Origin: a virus
DNA length: 64,000 nt
IMG/VR virus record: IMGVR_UViG_3300033182_000581
Span: 1 to 64,000 of that record
Reading direction: 5' to 3' (one strand)
Position numbers and translations under genes: made by a program. Below the pieces are notes generated by a model, which saw only the letters and a list, made by a program, of their open reading frames with translations, was not told where the DNA came from and made no database searches. Of this stretch, positions 51,561 to 64,000 are shown in pieces. Each line of letters begins with the position of its first letter. The first letter of the stretch is position 1.

Positions 51561-51983
51561 ATGAAAAAGCAATTACAACAATTATTGGAATTCCAAAGAG
51601 CGTATAATTCTACGAGAAACACCAAACCAACCTTAATCTCAGAAGATGATTATGTACTAAGATATAAGTTGGGTAAAGAGGAACTGATAGAATATTTTGA
51701 TGCGTGTAAAGATGGAAACTTAACTGAGGTGGCAGATGCACTCGCAGACCAATTGTACATCCTTTTGGGTACAATGATTTCCCACGGTATGCAAGATGTA
51801 ATCGAAGATATCTTTGATGAAGTACATCGTTCAAATATGAGTAAGTTAGGTTCAGATGGTAAACCCATTTATAGAGAAGATGGTAAGATTCTCAAAGGGC
51901 CTAACTTTTCACCACCTAATATATCTAAGTATCTTTCAAATAATGGTCAAATAGAAATCCCATTGGATGAAAAGGTACATTAA
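51561..51983 (+). CDS. MazG-like all-alpha NTP pyrophosphohydrolase (DR2231/PRA-PH type)
   Basis: EELIEY, EVADALAD..Y, EVHRSNMSKL, DGKILKG. Confidence 0.88.
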   Translation: MKKQLQQLLEFQRAYNSTRNTKPTLISEDDYVLRYKLGKEELIEYFDACKDGNLTEVADALADQLYILLGTMISHGMQDVIEDIFDEVHRSNMSKLGSDGKPIYREDGKILKGPNFSPPNISKYLSNNGQIEIPLDEKVH

Positions 51984-52204: not shown

Positions 52205-52903
52205 ATGACATTAATAGAAGCAACTTCTCCAGGTGATGCATGGGTAAAAGTATCAAAACATCTTTTAGAAAATGGAGTTAGAGTAGGTAACCTAACTGAA
52301 GAACTAAATGTAATGACAGAAATCACCGAATTCAAATCGGATGATTGGTTCGATGGCCATTTTAGAGAAGTTATGGGTGATGATAGAATTGATTTTGCCA
52401 AAACGGTAACATTCCTTAAACCAGAACCTAAAAAATCAGATAATGCATTCTTTGAAGCAGAAGAAGGGTTGGATTATAAATTTATCAAAGACCACTATCA
52501 CCAATCTTATTGGGGTAGAATGGTTAGTTGGAGAGGTGAATTCAATCAGATTGAGAATGTAATAAAAATTCTTTCGACTGGGAAGGCAGTTAAACGTTGT
52601 GAGTTGATTATATTCGACCCCACAAAAGATGCACGAAACCCATACTCACAACCTTGTATGGTTATGATTGATTTAAAACCAAGAGATGGTAAGTTATATC
52701 TAACATCCGTTCTTCGTTCAAATAGAGTATCTAAATCTGGTTATGCAGATTATACCGCATTAGTAGAGATGGGTAATTTCCTTTCTGAGCAGAGTGGTTT
52801 GGAATTGGGTAAGGTAAGTGTACTTGCGTGTTCTTGTCATATTGGTGATATGAATGAAGAAAAAAAGAAAACCATTAAATTACTAGAAATTTTAGGTAAG
52901 TAA
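52205..52903 (+). CDS. thymidylate-synthase-fold enzyme, dCMP-hydroxymethylase-like
   Basis: Catalytic PC (QPC), GKLYLTSVLRSN, Asp at RS+11 (GYADY), SCHI. Confidence 0.75.
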   Translation: MTLIEATSPGDAWVKVSKHLLENGVRVGNLTEELNVMTEITEFKSDDWFDGHFREVMGDDRIDFAKTVTFLKPEPKKSDNAFFEAEEGLDYKFIKDHYHQSYWGRMVSWRGEFNQIENVIKILSTGKAVKRCELIIFDPTKDARNPYSQPCMVMIDLKPRDGKLYLTSVLRSNRVSKSGYADYTALVEMGNFLSEQSGLELGKVSVLACSCHIGDMNEEKKKTIKLLEILGK

Positions 52904-52904
52904 T

Positions 52905-54410
52905 ATGTGTGGTATAGTTACAACAATAGGTTACGATACATCAGATGTAAATGTGATGTTAGATGCAATTGAGCATAGAGGTAGAGATTATAGAGGTATC
53001 AATGAATTTGAAGTAAATGGTAAAAAGGTAGTTTTAGGACATAACCGATTATCCATCAATGATACATCTTCTGCCGGAAATCAACCTATGGAGTACGATG
53101 GTGTTTGGTTAGTAGTTAATGGTGAAATTTGGAACTATCCACAACTTCGAAAAGAATATGAAGAGAGAGGGTATAAATTCAAATCAAATTCAGATTCAGA
53201 GATTATTTTATTCTTATATAAAGAGGGTGAGTTAAAACGTCTGAATGGTATGTTTTCATTTGTTATTTTTGACGGAAGTAAACTAATCGTATCTCGCGAT
53301 TGGGTTGGTAAAATTCCATTGTATATCCACAACACTAACAAATACATTATTGCGAGTGAGATTAAGGCTATACAAACTCAAAACGGAATCAATGATATTA
53401 AGATAGTTCCTAAAAACACCTTAATTGAGATTGATTTGAATACAGATGAGTTTATTGTACATAAAGATTACTACTTTAACTTTTCATCAGAAGTTACTCA
53501 TGTAACATCACATGAAGATGTGGCAGAAACAACATTTAAATTATTAGAATCTGCAGTTGATAAAAGGTTAATATCAGATGTACCTATTGCAACATCTCTA
53601 AGTGGTGGTATTGATTCAGCAATCATTACTTACCTATTGGCACAGAGAATTCCAAATATAAAAGCATATACTATTGCGTTTGACCAGGAATCAAAAGATT
53701 TACAAAAGGCAAGGGTTTGTGCAGAATCAATAGGAATTGAATTAGTTGAGGTGTTTGTACCTCGCGATGAAAAGATTATCAAACAAAGATTTATGGAATC
53801 TATCAAAGTGATTGAGTTTCCATCAACCGTTCAAATGGAAGTTGGTATCCTACAATCATTCATAGCTGAAGAAATGGCCAAAGATGGTATCAAAGTAGCA
53901 TTTAGTGGTGAGGGTTCTGATGAATCATATGGTTCTTACGGAACGTTCAGAATGTTCAGTAAGAAACCAGATTGGAGTGGTGTTAGAAAAAAACTATTTG
54001 AAAAACAACACTATGGTAATCTACTCAGAGGTAATACTATTTTTATGAATTATGGTACTATCGAATTGAGGTGTCCATTCTTTGATACGGATTTCTTAGA
54101 TTATACCACCAACCTTACCGATGAGTTCTTATCTCACAAAGGACAGTGGAAATTACCACTTGCAAATGCGTTTAGAGGTAAATTACCAGATGAGATATTA
54201 GACCAGGAGAAACGTGCGTTTCAGAAAGGCACTAACTTTAAACAATACATAGAGGATATTATTCTTAATGATGCTGAGATAAACTTCAATAACCGAAAAA
54301 ATATGATTCACGTTATTGGTGATAATTTCAAAAGAATACATGGGTTTCCACATAAAAAACTAAGAGAAGAAGTAACATCAAATAATATTGGTATCTATCA
54401 ATGGGTTTAA
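52905..54410 (+). CDS. asnB: asparagine-synthetase-B-like glutamine amidotransferase/amide ligase
   Basis: N-terminal MCGI, HRG, GHNRLSI, QPM, NGEI.NY, SDSE, LSGGIDS, SGEGSDE, ELR.PF.D. Confidence 0.92.
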   Translation: MCGIVTTIGYDTSDVNVMLDAIEHRGRDYRGINEFEVNGKKVVLGHNRLSINDTSSAGNQPMEYDGVWLVVNGEIWNYPQLRKEYEERGYKFKSNSDSEIILFLYKEGELKRLNGMFSFVIFDGSKLIVSRDWVGKIPLYIHNTNKYIIASEIKAIQTQNGINDIKIVPKNTLIEIDLNTDEFIVHKDYYFNFSSEVTHVTSHEDVAETTFKLLESAVDKRLISDVPIATSLSGGIDSAIITYLLAQRIPNIKAYTIAFDQESKDLQKARVCAESIGIELVEVFVPRDEKIIKQRFMESIKVIEFPSTVQMEVGILQSFIAEEMAKDGIKVAFSGEGSDESYGSYGTFRMFSKKPDWSGVRKKLFEKQHYGNLLRGNTIFMNYGTIELRCPFFDTDFLDYTTNLTDEFLSHKGQWKLPLANAFRGKLPDEILDQEKRAFQKGTNFKQYIEDIILNDAEINFNNRKNMIHVIGDNFKRIHGFPHKKLREEVTSNNIGIYQWV

Positions 54411-55237
54411 AAGGATTTAACGAAGAAACTCCATTAGAGGAGTACAAAGTAAAAGGTCGTTCTGTTTGGGTAAAGAGAGATGACCTAATGGGTGATGGTG
54501 TTAGTTTACCGCCGTGGGGTAAGATTGGCGCAGTTTATGAACTTGTTAAAAAGTATGTAGATAGAAATAGACCATTAACTCACTTATCAGTAGATGGTTC
54601 TTGGACAGGTTGGGTTCTTGCAGCAATATGTGAAGATTTAGGAATTGAGTTCCACGTTTCGTATCCAGACTCTAAAAAGATTAGTAGAGTTTATTTGGAT
54701 ATGATACAAGAAATGTATCCATCAGTACATATGAATCCCATCAAACCAAATATGATGCAGATTATGTATAACTCTTTAAAAAGTACAGCTAAAGAGAATG
54801 GTTGGCAGATGTTACCATATGCGTTTGACCACGAATTTTATAGAGAATACCTTAAAGAAAGAATACAACCATATAAACATTTTAAAAATTTAGTTGTATC
54901 TTCGGGTAGTGGTGTAACTCTTTCTGGTCTTATGATGGGGTATTATGATGAAGAGTTAAAACAATTTTTTGTTAAGACTGATAAAAAAGTATGGACAACG
55001 TGCGTATCATCTGAAAGTTCAATTCGAAAAATGTTATTAAAAAGTGGTGTTGGGCAAGTACCGATTGATATTAGAAAATCAGAGTATGGTTTTGATGATA
55101 GATTAGAAGGTTATGAAGCACCATTCCCATGTAATCAGTTTTGGGATATTAAACAATGGCATTGGTTAGAAAACAACATTGATTCTTTAGAAGGTGATAT
55201 CCTTTTTTGGAACATCGGTGGCCTTTACAAATTTTAA
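54401..55237 (+). CDS. PLP-dependent fold-type II enzyme (ACC deaminase/D-Cys desulfhydrase-like)
   Basis: TPLE...VWVKRDDL...GK, SSGSGVTLSG, LFWNIGG. Confidence 0.8.
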   Translation: MGLKGFNEETPLEEYKVKGRSVWVKRDDLMGDGVSLPPWGKIGAVYELVKKYVDRNRPLTHLSVDGSWTGWVLAAICEDLGIEFHVSYPDSKKISRVYLDMIQEMYPSVHMNPIKPNMMQIMYNSLKSTAKENGWQMLPYAFDHEFYREYLKERIQPYKHFKNLVVSSGSGVTLSGLMMGYYDEELKQFFVKTDKKVWTTCVSSESSIRKMLLKSGVGQVPIDIRKSEYGFDDRLEGYEAPFPCNQFWDIKQWHWLENNIDSLEGDILFWNIGGLYKF

Positions 55238-55318: not shown

Positions 55319-56950
55319 ATGAAGTTAATAAAGGAACATAACTGTGAGAGTATGGTTTGGACTCTGCAGGGTCAACCATTGGAACATGGTTTCGATGGTC
55401 AAAACTTCCTCATGGAGTGGGATGATAACTCGATTGGTTACGGTGGTAACTCCGTTATAAATAAGTTATTTAAAGATTCTAATGGTAGATGGTCTATTAT
55501 TAGGGGACAACAAGGTGGTTCTTGTACCGATGAAAGATTTATCTACGGATTTATCGATAAGAAAAAAAGAAACAACGAAGAGCGAAATAGAAGTGAATCC
55601 AGTGGTTTAGCCGAGATGGGTGGTTCAGTTTCAACTCATAACTTTAGTACTAACGAAGTAGTTGGTTATGTAACTCCTGATAGGAAATTTAGAATAGCGA
55701 AATTCGAATACGGATTTCCAAATGGTTTAGAAACATCGGAAGTAACCCCTTCCGATTTTGTAAAACTACAATCATTAAAGGTTAGTATTTACGAAGTTTC
55801 AAAAGAAGAATATTTGAATGAACATGGTCTTGGAAAATCGTTCAACGGATGGTTTAATAAATCTCTCCTTTTTAAAGGAACACGATTAAGACCTGATTTT
55901 TACGGATTGGTTGATTTTTCATCAATGAGATATCAGTTTAGAACTGGTAAGAAGTTGAAGTATGAACTTCATGTTGAAGGTGAAGAACCAATTTCACTTC
56001 CAACTAAAAGATTTTACTTCCCATGTAATTCAGGTGAGCCAGTAACTCACTACTCTCAAATGTTAGAAGTTGAGGATACTGAAGGTGAAACACTCCACAC
56101 AATCCATTGTGGTTCTGATGTGTACGAAGGAACTTTACATAGTTATGAAACAATCAGAGCATCTCAGACTGATAAGTTGATGAAGTTAGAGAATATGGCA
56201 GGTGGTCAACACATGATTCACCCAACTCACTCTAAGAAGTTAGATTTTCCAACCATCGATGTAATCGACGCGAGTGGTACTTATATTACTACCGTTCCAT
56301 TGTTTACTACGAGTAGATGGGATGAGTTCTACAACAATAGAAAGTGGTTCTTTGTTCTCACATCCGATTCAGCAGTACCATTCGCAAGAATGAAGAATCA
56401 GTTCTCTAATATGGAGTTTCCAATTGAGTTAAGAGCATATGTTAAGAGATTGGCTAAAAAACTTGATTTAGGTCATACAGGCTCTAAAAAGATGCTAAAG
56501 AAGATTGAGGATGCAGAGGTTCAAAATTATGTAGATTGTTTAAAAGATGAAAATAACCCATCACATGCTACAGTTCTCCTTAATACTGAAAAGATTATTG
56601 GTGGTAAGATTGAAGTTAATAACATCGTTAGAGAGTGTACTACATATTCATTCAACACCGATTTAATTTTTAATTCAAATCACGAACACTTAGTTGAGTG
56701 GCAGAAAGATGGAATGGATGATGAACACATCACAGAGTTTATTGCCAGATTGGTGATGCCACGACATAAGTTCAAAACACTAACATGGGTTCATGGTGGT
56801 GAATCATCCAATTTGATTGGTAAGTTAAAAGAAGTAATAGAGGGTGGTAGAGTTAACCTTAATGGTATTGAGAAAATTCAAACAGTTAATAAGAAAGATT
56901 TCTATACTACTAAAGGTTATCAAAACGTAACAATCATTTATCAGAAATAA
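55319..56950 (+). CDS. hypothetical protein, possibly degenerate GHKL ATPase plus C-terminal PD-(D/E)XK-like nuclease
   Basis: 543-aa ORF is solid. Domain call is weak: LMEWDDNSIG, SGLAEMGG, TDLI...LVEWQK..MDDEHI. Confidence 0.45.
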   Translation: MKLIKEHNCESMVWTLQGQPLEHGFDGQNFLMEWDDNSIGYGGNSVINKLFKDSNGRWSIIRGQQGGSCTDERFIYGFIDKKKRNNEERNRSESSGLAEMGGSVSTHNFSTNEVVGYVTPDRKFRIAKFEYGFPNGLETSEVTPSDFVKLQSLKVSIYEVSKEEYLNEHGLGKSFNGWFNKSLLFKGTRLRPDFYGLVDFSSMRYQFRTGKKLKYELHVEGEEPISLPTKRFYFPCNSGEPVTHYSQMLEVEDTEGETLHTIHCGSDVYEGTLHSYETIRASQTDKLMKLENMAGGQHMIHPTHSKKLDFPTIDVIDASGTYITTVPLFTTSRWDEFYNNRKWFFVLTSDSAVPFARMKNQFSNMEFPIELRAYVKRLAKKLDLGHTGSKKMLKKIEDAEVQNYVDCLKDENNPSHATVLLNTEKIIGGKIEVNNIVRECTTYSFNTDLIFNSNHEHLVEWQKDGMDDEHITEFIARLVMPRHKFKTLTWVHGGESSNLIGKLKEVIEGGRVNLNGIEKIQTVNKKDFYTTKGYQNVTIIYQK

Positions 56951-61995: not shown

Positions 61996-62709
61996 ATGGA
62001 AAAAGTTCGTGTAAACCGATTTATTCAGAAGTACAACCTTGCTGGGTTAATCGAATCTGTGAAGTGGGGTGTCGAGGGAGACACATTAACCACGCAATTT
62101 ATTTCAGATGACAAATCCGTGCTAGGTAATGTTACTATGACAGGTTTTGATTTTGAAGATGGTGAGTATGGTATTTACGATACCACAAAGTTCACCAAAA
62201 TGTTATCAGTATTATCAAATGATGTAGATATCACTCCATCTAAGTTTGATGGTAAGGTAACTGCCATTGATTTATCTGATAAAGGTACATCGGCAACTTA
62301 TATGTTGGCAGACCTCTCAGTTATTCCAGTTGTTCCTGATTTGAAACAACTACCACCATTCGATGTTCAAATTGATATCGATTCTACATTTGTAGATAGA
62401 TTCAATAAGGCAAAGAGTGCTCTTTCTGATGAGAAAAACTTTACATTCCAATGTAAGGGTGGTAATGGTAAAATCATCATTGGTTATTCTAAAACCAATA
62501 CTAACAGAATCTCTATTGATGTAAATTGTAAATGTGAAAACGATGTAGATGGTATTTCATTCTCAGCAGATTTCTTAAAAGAAATTCTAAATGCAAATAG
62601 AGATGCATCTTCGGCATCATTAAAGATTTCAACACAAGGATTGGCTAACCTAAAATTCGATGTAGACAATTATACATCTGAATATTACTTAGTAGAGGTA
62701 CAATCATAA
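61996..62709 (+). CDS. gp45: sliding clamp (gp45/PCNA-like)
   Basis: GIYD...F..MLS motif, two-domain clamp size (237 aa), adjacent to PolB. Confidence 0.75.
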   Translation: MEKVRVNRFIQKYNLAGLIESVKWGVEGDTLTTQFISDDKSVLGNVTMTGFDFEDGEYGIYDTTKFTKMLSVLSNDVDITPSKFDGKVTAIDLSDKGTSATYMLADLSVIPVVPDLKQLPPFDVQIDIDSTFVDRFNKAKSALSDEKNFTFQCKGGNGKIIIGYSKTNTNRISIDVNCKCENDVDGISFSADFLKEILNANRDASSASLKISTQGLANLKFDVDNYTSEYYLVEVQS

Positions 62710-64000
62710 TGAATCATTTTTACGAACGTTCACAGTTTTCCACATTTAAATCCAATACAACTTATCATCAGTTACTACAAATGACTGATGATGAGTTTGT
62801 GGATTGGGCTCGTACGCTTCGTAAAGAGGTTACAGAGCAGTGGGATGAAAGAGGTACTCCACCTGTTATAGGTAAGAATGAGAAAGGTATCATAACTTCT
62901 ATGAAAAAACTTAAATCCAACTCTGCAGATTATTGGGAGAAAGATTTGAGTGGAGATAGTGGTTCATTGGGTATCATCAAAAATTTCAATAAAGATGCAT
63001 CAGTTGTAAATCAGTTTTTCCCAACAATGTTAAAAACTAAGATTTCAATTGGTAAATCTGCAGATGGTGGGTTGAGTATTTATGACCATTTCTCAGACCC
63101 CGATATGGAAGATAAGTTCGTAAAGATTATGAAACGGTCTGTAAAAAGGGATTCAATGTATTCCTGGTCGCGTTCTATTGTTAATAAGAGGGATGAGAAC
63201 CCATTTTGGAATGGTCAAACTGGATATGATTTTGTAAAAGAAGTACATGATGGTAAAATATTCAATGGGAAATATTCTAATTACTCAATAGTTCTTGCAA
63301 AGGTAAAAGAAGATACTTTAGAGAATTATGGAACTTTCAACGCAGAGTATGTTGGGTTTAGTAATCTTTATTTATCTGCAGATGAAGTTAATGAACTAAA
63401 AGATGGTGGGTATCTGAACCAAACCCAATTATCAAACATCGATAAAATAGAACCATCATATGAACTAAAAGATGGTACTAAGAAGAATTATCACTATTTA
63501 ATTCGATGGTATGATAAGACAGTTGGTATATTCCCTAAAATACTTCAGGTATTTAGATTAGGATGTGGACAACCCGCAGTTAACTTCCCGGCCCTTACTG
63601 CTAAATGGATTTATGAAAACTATACATCACATATTGAGCAAGATGAACCATTAAACATTTATGATTCATCTGCAGGTTGGGGTGGTAGAATTATGGGTGC
63701 TATGAGTAGTAGAAAGAAAATCCACTACATTGGAACTGACCCAAATCCCGATAACTTTATTGATGAATTAGGTATCACACGATATGAATATCTTGCAGAT
63801 TTCTACAATAAAAATTGTGTTGATGATTTCTCAGATAAACTAACAACATTCTTTAATGTAGAAAAACAATCTAATACATATGATGTTTATCAAGAGGGTT
63901 CTGAATTAATTCAACATAATCCAAACTTTCAGAAGTATAAAGGTAAGTTGGATTTGGCGTTCACATCACCGCCGTACTTTAATAGAGAACAATATTCACA
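62709..64000 (+). CDS. third SPPY-type methyltransferase (3'-truncated; absent from the ORF track)
   Basis: ATG 62709 overlaps the clamp stop. Reads MNHFYERS...AVNFPALTAK...IYDSSAGWGGR...YIGTDPN...LAFTSPPYFNREQYS to the window end. Confidence 0.85.
   Translation, partial: MNHFYERSQFSTFKSNTTYHQLLQMTDDEFVDWARTLRKEVTEQWDERGTPPVIGKNEKGIITSMKKLKSNSADYWEKDLSGDSGSLGIIKNFNKDASVVNQFFPTMLKTKISIGKSADGGLSIYDHFSDPDMEDKFVKIMKRSVKRDSMYSWSRSIVNKRDENPFWNGQTGYDFVKEVHDGKIFNGKYSNYSIVLAKVKEDTLENYGTFNAEYVGFSNLYLSADEVNELKDGGYLNQTQLSNIDKIEPSYELKDGTKKNYHYLIRWYDKTVGIFPKILQVFRLGCGQPAVNFPALTAKWIYENYTSHIEQDEPLNIYDSSAGWGGRIMGAMSSRKKIHYIGTDPNPDNFIDELGITRYEYLADFYNKNCVDDFSDKLTTFFNVEKQSNTYDVYQEGSELIQHNPNFQKYKGKLDLAFTSPPYFNREQYS

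Follow-up and report, generated by a model that had tools for sequence, protein, structure and literature searches.

The first 64,000 nucleotides of IMG/VR virus record IMGVR_UViG_3300033182_000581 (169,380 bp, ~93% complete), hereafter the window, encode a short protein of the thymidylate synthase (TS) superfamily that is very probably an active enzyme modifying C5 of deoxycytidine monophosphate (dCMP) and starting a conserved DNA hypermodification pathway. This TS-like protein retains the catalytic cysteine and a cytosine-type aspartate, while the aspartate that binds the pterin of folate in the Escherichia coli enzyme (D169) is replaced by Arg174 in an RSNR motif. The best single reading, which we hold at about an even chance, is that the enzyme uses a non-canonical, carboxylate-bearing co-substrate. 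We favor this reading because the aspartate is lost clade-wide, every member has an arginine at either residue 174 or 214, the enzymes known to build on hydroxymethyl groups are absent, and the gene is tightly linked to enzymes that require a carboxylate or an α-amino acid. We regard the protein as a TS-superfamily enzyme that opens a phage hypermodification pathway, with a substantial chance that its clade represents a new cofactor class.

To our knowledge, all phage TS homologues were thought to be folate-dependent until 2025-26. Such homologues set the non-canonical pyrimidine chemistry on which whole hypermodification pathways build, and the clade adds a third state at residue 169, after the folate aspartate and the switch that marks flavin enzymes. 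In the literature searched we found no paper describing this TS-like clade, and the gene set of its cassette, an amide ligase, a pyridoxal phosphate (PLP) enzyme, a B12-type radical S-adenosylmethionine (SAM) enzyme and methyltransferase-like proteins with an SPPY motif, fits none of the pathways described so far. A new donor, should there be one, would widen what a textbook enzyme fold can catalyze and would predict a new DNA base that affects restriction, CRISPR and the sequencing of marine viromes.

Loss of the pterin-binding aspartate

Direct translation places the cysteine of QPC151 at 52655-52657 and D182 at 52748-52750; D182 follows the RS arginine by 11 residues, which is the canonical spacing. 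These codons, together with those of RSNR (R171-S172-N173-R174) and H212-I-G214, all fall within 52610-52860 (Table 1). A preliminary description of this DNA had proposed that RSNR replaces the RSxD motif of TS, and both the translation and four alignments bear this out. HMMER pairs the ‘RAND’ of MilA and the ‘RSAD’ of Enterococcus faecalis TS with RSNR, and a profile of the clade pairs the ‘RSQN’ of AfhB with the same residues. An hhalign comparison of the clade with the single sequence of T4 gp42 sets ‘RSND’ over RSNR in the same register, at a probability of only 4.8%. The four alignments are independent and each puts Arg174 at the E. coli D169 position. No indel separates the RS pair from D182 and residues 173-181 contain no other acidic residue; therefore, no register shift can supply an aspartate, and the shift that the preliminary description had considered, in which another aspartate would fill the site, does not occur at the level of sequence.

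The replacement is a property of the clade, which we define by 72 unique sequences. RSNR is invariant across the 36 unique sequences of the close homologues, and the clade motif is RS[NQMC][RA], with aspartate at residue 174 in none of the 72. More distant short TS homologues, by contrast, retain the aspartate in 74% of cases. By these sequence comparisons, the RSNR feature is not a chance one.

An arginine at residue 174 or residue 214

In the structure of T4 dCMP hydroxymethylase (dCH; gp42) with dCMP and tetrahydrofolate (THF), Asp171, the counterpart of D169, and Tyr218, the counterpart of E. coli Y209, both line the pterin pocket (PMC6400193). The clade departs from the canonical residue at both positions. 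At residue 214, equivalent to Y209, it carries G, H, T, F, S, K or R and never tyrosine, and the identity of this residue follows that of residue 174: Arg174 is paired with a residue other than arginine at 214 in 59 of the 72 unique sequences, the other 13 combine Ala174 with Arg214, and arginine at both positions or at neither is seen in none. Because arginine is exclusive to one or the other of two positions that both belong to the pterin pocket in T4, the pattern suggests a single required guanidinium, which can come from either side of what was once the pterin site. The conservation of the arginine, to which the preliminary description had looked, is thus partial at residue 174 itself: the aspartate is absent from 72 of 72 sequences, yet Arg174 is not invariant, with alanine in 13.

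We retain this exchange as a pattern only and rejected it as statistical proof of covariation. A maximum-likelihood tree places the A174/R214 state at four places that provide only 2 phylogenetically independent pairs, and a tree with one A174/R214 clade is not rejected by the approximately unbiased (AU) test (p 0.157).

Fold and catalytic residues of the TS-like protein

The AlphaFold (AF2) model of the TS-like protein, built from 87 homologues, has a predicted local distance difference test score (pLDDT) of 95.6 and a predicted template modeling score (pTM) of 0.92. In this model the protein has the TS α/β fold. Foldseek matches it with probability 1.0 to structures of AfhB, MilA and ThyA at template modeling (TM) scores of 0.55-0.72; AfhB of phage HY126, a flavin-dependent dCMP hydroxylase (9iqc/9iqu, E 4e-12), is the top match and MilA is next (E 2e-11), with ThyA structures and T4 dCH among the further matches. 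The clade profile also matches HY126 AfhB (E 2e-8), and MilA scores nearly equal to AfhB both by Foldseek and by profile. Sequence families capture the protein less well: its PF00303 score of 21.7 bits lies under the 24.3 cut-off, some of its homologues have a precomputed PF00303 match, and the nearest curated sequence family is TIGR03283, the methanogen-type TS (72.2 bits versus an equivalog cut-off of 174.55). The TS-like protein shares the short architecture of the methanogen-type enzyme, which in contrast keeps RSxD, Asn177 and HxY.

The catalytic set conserved in the clade comprises PC151, Y102, R171-S172, D182 and H212, of which P150-C151, R171-S172 and D182 are invariant. P150-C151 and R171-S172 align with their counterparts in MilA, TS and AfhB; the Arg171-Ser172 pair binds the nucleotide phosphate in the TS superfamily. 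Asp182 sits at the position of E. coli N177, at the same spacing from the RS pair as in MilA and AfhB, and by this alignment it is the cytosine-type aspartate that would confer selectivity for dCMP. The cysteine of QPC and the dCMP-type aspartate had both been recognized in the preliminary description, and their conservation in the clade confirms it. The protein resembles the CMP 5-hydroxymethylase MilA (5b6d/5jnh) and T4 gp42 in its TS fold, its cysteine, its RS pair and the aspartate at RS+11. Those two enzymes keep the RxxD aspartate and the HxY tyrosine and use methylene-tetrahydrofolate (CH2-THF), whereas the window protein has Arg174, Gly214 and its sub-Pfam score. Basic or charged residues specific to the clade include R54, D59-E60-R61 and the invariant K177, the last aligned to Phe174 of T4 dCH, which binds the p-aminobenzoate (PABA) moiety.

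Distribution of the clade and linkage of the cassette

Only 14 clusters at E ≤ 1e-30 were returned when 1.84 billion representatives were searched exhaustively without a profile, and a word-indexed search returned ~200 close homologues at 72-94% identity from marine and other metagenomes. One cluster at 90% identity has 334 members on 111 contigs, Tara samples included. A tblastn search with the TS-like protein against 50,697 phage records, covering cultured relatives, gave no match over 28% identity. A scan of IMG/VR yielded 77 loci in which the TS-like protein is 37%-94% identical to that of the window, on contigs of 6 to 376 kb. The clade is abundant, and its cassette turns up again and again in phages that otherwise differ greatly. 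If the donor is new, RS-x-[RA], SK[SA]GY[AG]D and H-x-[R or non-R] would serve as a signature for mining further members.

The loci were annotated by BLAST against the genes of the window and of four metagenomic contigs, and linkage was counted in the 70 of 77 loci that retain 2.5 kb or more of sequence 3′ of the TS-like gene; many of these are close relatives, so the counts are not independent. Of the 70, 69 have an asparagine-synthase-type gene no more than 5 kb from the TS-like gene (54 long forms with a glutamine amidotransferase (GATase) domain and 15 short forms of ~300 aa), 65 have a PLP gene and 62 an SPPY methyltransferase-like gene in this range. The AsnB-like neighbor to which the preliminary description had drawn attention is accordingly a near-constant partner in its AsnB- or CmoY-like form. 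A B12-type radical SAM gene is present in 7 of the 70 loci, and the genome of the window has no radical SAM gene. None of the loci has a glycosyltransferase gene within 8 kb of the TS-like gene.

In one relative (P0126, L003:7088-9118) the TS-like and B12-radical-SAM proteins form a genuine fusion of the RSNA/HIR type, with an intact linker and the CxxxCxxC motif. A stand-alone radical SAM protein of ~450 aa, PhpK-like and of class B, is encoded beside the TS-like gene in eight loci (L008, L010, L050, L058, L059, L062, L063 and L065), one of which also has an IS605 OrfB/TnpB-type gene just upstream of the TS-like gene (L008:6766-7944).

Two other apparent fusions were rejected. A 710-aa open reading frame (ORF) joining TS and AsnB (L056, 8001-10133) lacks the last ~15 residues of TS and the first ~14 of AsnB at its junction, and we discarded it as a Rosetta-stone fusion; it is probably an in-frame deletion variant and not a working fusion, because the obligatory N-terminal cysteine of AsnB is lost there. 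In the other (P0270, L064:7233-8687), a GIY-YIG/NUMOD3 homing-endonuclease ORF lies in frame upstream and is not a functional partner; the search for longer fused forms returned P0270 only, which is weak evidence.

The amide-forming enzyme

The AsnB-like protein of the window combines an N-terminal Cys2 class II GATase domain with a PP-loop asparagine-synthase domain. It matches E. coli AsnB (1ct9) at E 3e-38 and scores 255 bits against NF006949 AsnB, for which the cut-off is 499. In close relatives, whose TS-like proteins are 91% identical to that of the window, the slot at 52905-54410 holds either the 501-aa GATase form (L016) or a 308-aa CmoY-like ligase (L013:8696-9622), which suggests diversification of the amine that is joined to the modification. 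The short ligase family is homologous over its full length to CmoY of Synechococcus phage S-B43, which it matches over 227 columns with an hhalign probability of 99.6 (E 3e-24), and the S-B43 gene matched lies between an annotated methyltransferase-domain gene (CmoA) and a DNA-cytosine methyltransferase (CmoX).

The S-B43 system is among the closest characterized parallels. CmoA makes carboxy-SAM, CmoX puts a carboxymethyl group on cytosine C5 with a key arginine that binds the carboxylate of the donor, and CmoY ligates glycine to the carboxylate of 5-carboxymethylcytosine in DNA; a second cluster of CmoY-type ligases has a glutamine-hydrolysing domain (PMC12783734). By analogy, the alternation of long and short ligases in our loci appears to mirror these two clusters (PMC12783734). 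Both systems would act at cytosine C5 beside an asparagine-synthase-type ligase that in the short form of the cassette is homologous to CmoY, whereas the window has the long form. The S-B43 C5 enzyme, CmoX, has a DNA C5-methyltransferase fold with SPPC and Arg350 and works on DNA; the C5 enzyme of the cassette has a TS fold and presumably works on dCMP. The cassette goes beyond the S-B43 system in its gp52-type PLP enzyme and SPPY genes and contains no homologue of CmoA or CmoX. A carboxy-SAM route was considered and rejected on this last point, with supply by the host possible: TIGR00740 finds no CmoA in the genome at E ≤ 1.

The PLP enzyme and pyrimidine hypermodification clusters

Along its full length, the PLP enzyme is homologous to gp52 of phage M6 (YP_001294560). 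It keeps the lysine aligned with M6 K36 and the C-terminal PFPCN...FWN[IL]G block. M6 gp52 has been shown experimentally to decarboxylate an amino acid that is attached to a base in DNA (PMC8989533). The thymidine clusters of M6 and ViI, which lead to 5-NedU and 5-NeOmdU, likewise couple nucleotide supply by a TS-family enzyme to a fold-type II PLP enzyme with a catalytic lysine. Unlike them, the cassette is without the 5-HMUDK kinase, aGPT-Pplase and M6-type radical SAM isomerase, and its base is probably cytosine and not uracil. We rejected an M6-type route on this ground, as 5-HMUDK kinase, aGPT-Pplase and the M6 radical SAM enzyme are absent from the genome and the 77 loci; tblastn with M6 gp51, gp53 and gp54 found no match in this set, although BLAST could miss very distant homologues.

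Proposed mechanism and alternative cofactors

We propose that Cys151 would activate C5 of dCMP while Asp182 would select cytosine, and that the TS-like enzyme opens, at the level of the nucleotide, the pathway of a conserved, uncharacterized phage hypermodification cassette. This cassette would consist of the TS-like gene, an AsnB/CmoY-like enzyme, a gp52-type PLP enzyme and/or a B12-radical-SAM enzyme, and the SPPY genes. Since the pterin aspartate is lost, a guanidinium is kept at residue 174 or 214, and the clade carries the basic residues R54, R61 and K177, the electrophile would be other than canonically bound CH2-THF, and an anionic, carboxylate-bearing donor or co-nucleophile would act instead. 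This role could fall to a 3-amino-3-carboxypropyl or carboxymethyl group derived from SAM, to glyoxylate or another 2-oxo acid through a Baylis-Hillman-type addition, or to an amino acid that traps the folate-derived exocyclic methylene. The carboxylate or amine placed at C5 would then be amidated by the ligase and processed by the PLP enzyme, probably once the nucleotide has entered DNA. In this scheme the data show the fold, the catalytic residues, the loss of the aspartate, the mutually exclusive positions of the arginine, the gene linkage and the homologies to CmoY and gp52; which substrate and what kind of donor are used, and in which order the steps run, is what we infer. A donor that is anionic and not folate is plausible by analogy, with precedents in the D169N flavin enzymes and in the carboxylate-binding arginine of CmoX. 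The most specific form of the proposal is a third TS-superfamily cofactor class, with a carboxylate-bearing non-folate donor and a mobile arginine, whose handle is amidated by CmoY/AsnB ligases and trimmed by the gp52-type PLP enzyme to give a new hypermodified cytosine widespread in marine phages; we advance it tentatively, as possible but somewhat doubtful.

Several observations weigh against a carboxylate-bearing co-substrate. The exchange of arginine between residues 174 and 214 amounts to only 1-2 evolutionary switches, and we infer the spatial closeness of the two residues by analogy with T4 dCH. Two outgroup proteins that keep the aspartate (P0140 and P0145) already have arginine at 214; therefore, the arginine may predate the loss of the aspartate. 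K177 alone provides no argument against folate, since MilA, a folate enzyme, has arginine at that position. The AsnB-like protein scores 292.9 bits against TIGR01536, above the 267.1 cut-off of this generic asparagine synthase family. The logic of the pathway is also incomplete in that one carboxylate cannot serve both an amidating enzyme and a decarboxylase, and no donor-making gene was identified: neither the 169-kb genome nor any of the 77 loci gives a tblastn match to SpCmoA or SpCmoX. The non-folate, anionic donor put forward in the preliminary description is consequently supported by the loss of the aspartate, the arginine at 174 or 214 and the CmoY/AsnB neighbors, and finds no counterpart in a CmoA or CmoX gene.

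The strongest alternative is a folate-dependent dCMP hydroxymethylase or methylase with a remodeled pterin pocket, in which the one-carbon donor is unchanged, the product is 5-hydroxymethyl- or 5-methyl-dCMP, and the neighboring enzymes tailor that group or an amino acid traps the exocyclic methylene. Retention of Cys151, Tyr102, Arg171/Ser172 and His212 is consistent with such an enzyme, as are the arginine of MilA at the K177 position and the use of folate by all characterized members of the superfamily that transfer one carbon. In T4 dCH, moreover, the pterin contacts are made largely via water and Asp171 reaches the pterin only indirectly, through water (PMC6400193); folate use without the aspartate is therefore conceivable. 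However, every characterized folate-dependent member that we aligned (MilA, E. faecalis TS and T4 dCH) keeps the aspartate, and its loss is treated as diagnostic of a cofactor change (PMC13326640). The 5-HMUDK kinase and aGPT-Pplase are absent from the genome and the 77 loci by tblastn, and the phage genome has no dihydrofolate reductase (DHFR). On this evidence folate dependence is unlikely, though it deserves to be weighed seriously.

A flavin-dependent dCMP C5-hydroxylase of the AfhB/RB69 gp48 type, with arginine or alanine for the signature asparagine and 5-hydroxy-dCMP as the handle, is less probable still. TS homologues with Asn169 are 5-hydroxy-dCMP synthases associated with flavin mononucleotide (FMN), and residue 169 has been proposed as diagnostic of the change of cofactor (PMC13326640). 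AfhB-type enzymes are phage mononucleotide enzymes that start cytosine hypermodification (PMC13326640), and they are the best structural and profile matches of the TS-like protein. They share with it a short TS fold of ~230 aa, the cysteine, the aspartate at N177, and the loss of both Asp169 and Tyr209, features also found in RB69 gp48 and DLP3 gp80. MilA scores nearly as well as AfhB, however, and the clade has arginine or alanine where D169N is consistent in all verified 5-hydroxy-dCMP synthases (PMC13326640). The L143E change (Glu143 in the AfhB type) is likewise absent, this position being Ser148 in the window protein and S, G, K, R or L in the clade. AfhB-type partners are glycosyltransferases, of which the surveyed loci have none within 8 kb, whereas the partners in the cassette are amide-forming, PLP and methyltransferase-like enzymes, to the first two of which a bare hydroxyl is of no obvious use.

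It is very improbable that the linkage is metabolic, with AsnB as an auxiliary metabolic gene that encodes a genuine asparagine synthetase and the TS-like protein a degenerate or regulatory nucleotide-binding relic that plays no part in base modification: the AsnB-like protein does exceed the TIGR01536 cut-off, and a truncated ThyA remnant shows TS genes decaying in this genome, but all catalytic residues are intact over ~200 metagenomic homologues at 72-94% identity, the cassette is found in very different phage backgrounds (contigs of 6-376 kb, TS-like identity down to 37%), close relatives swap AsnB for a CmoY-type DNA-modification ligase, and the family of the PLP partner acts on modified DNA.

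Gene neighborhood in the window

All large ORFs of the window are on the + strand. The TS-like gene belongs to a replication and nucleotide-metabolism block that encodes, in order, gp32-like, RecA-like, 5′-3′ exonuclease, DnaB-like helicase, NrdB, NrdA and thioredoxin proteins, followed by the MazG-like, small helix-turn-helix, TS-like, AsnB-like and fold-type II PLP proteins, a 543-aa ORF, two SPPY proteins and PolB (Table 1).

Table 1 Features of the TS-like gene and its neighbors in the window
Feature	Coordinates	Strand	Evidence
MazG/PRA-PH-type NTP pyrophosphohydrolase, head of the gene run	51561..51983	+	Pfam PF01503, E 1.2e-12
Small helix-turn-helix protein, 73 aa	51967..52188	+	Pfam HTH_38, E 7e-6
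TS-superfamily enzyme, 232 aa	52205..52903	+	PF00303 below threshold; AF2; Foldseek; alignments
RSNR motif of the TS-like protein	52715..52726	+	Direct translation; alignments to MilA, E. faecalis TS, AfhB and T4 dCH
His212-Ile-Gly214 of the TS-like protein (E. coli H207-L-Y209)	52838..52846	+	Direct translation; comparison within the clade
AsnB-like glutamine-dependent amidotransferase, 501 aa	52905..54410	+	Pfam GATase_7, E 2e-32; Asn_synthase, E 9e-42
Fold-type II PLP enzyme, 278 aa, M6 gp52 homologue	54401..55237	+	tblastn, E 1e-14; phrog_7093, E 3.6e-24
543-aa ORF, family not assigned	55319..56950	+	No Pfam, PHROG or NCBIfam match
SPPY amino-methyltransferase-like paralogue 1, 409 aa	56975..58204	+	Pfam N6_N4_Mtase, E 1.3e-5, below cut-off
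SPPY amino-methyltransferase-like paralogue 2, 407 aa	58186..59409	+	Pfam N6_N4_Mtase, E 1.3e-3

The MazG-type protein at the head of the run would convert canonical dCTP to dCMP. Its gene is limited to the closest relatives (L015 and L018-L021), and the window protein shows no similarity to the S-B43 pyrophosphatase. Most close relatives keep the helix-turn-helix gene immediately 5′ of the TS-like gene. The 543-aa ORF is shared only with L011, L012, L018, L035 and L049; being confined to these few relatives, it is an accessory insertion outside the core cassette.

Beyond the window, the only canonical ThyA of the record is an N-terminal remnant of 70 aa, terminated by a stop (120087-120299 of the record, equivalent to L001:1486-1698). 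The C-terminal half of ThyA, ThyX, DHFR and dCMP deaminase are found nowhere in the 169-kb record. In one distant cassette, a gene of the pyridoxamine-5′-phosphate-oxidase family lies directly 3′ of the PLP-enzyme gene (L007:10402-11013), which suggests that this phage supplies its own PLP.

The SPPY proteins could target either a DNA base or the amide formed by the AsnB-like enzyme. A third paralogue is encoded at 62709-63998 of the window, all SPPY paralogues score under the Pfam N6_N4_Mtase cut-off, and in L082 as many as five copies surround the TS-like gene. Just past the end of the window, and 3′ of the third SPPY gene, an ORF of the PNP_UDP_1 family resembles nucleosidases of methylthioadenosine and S-adenosylhomocysteine (64905-65324 of the record), and such a gene would fit heavy use of SAM or of a SAM derivative.

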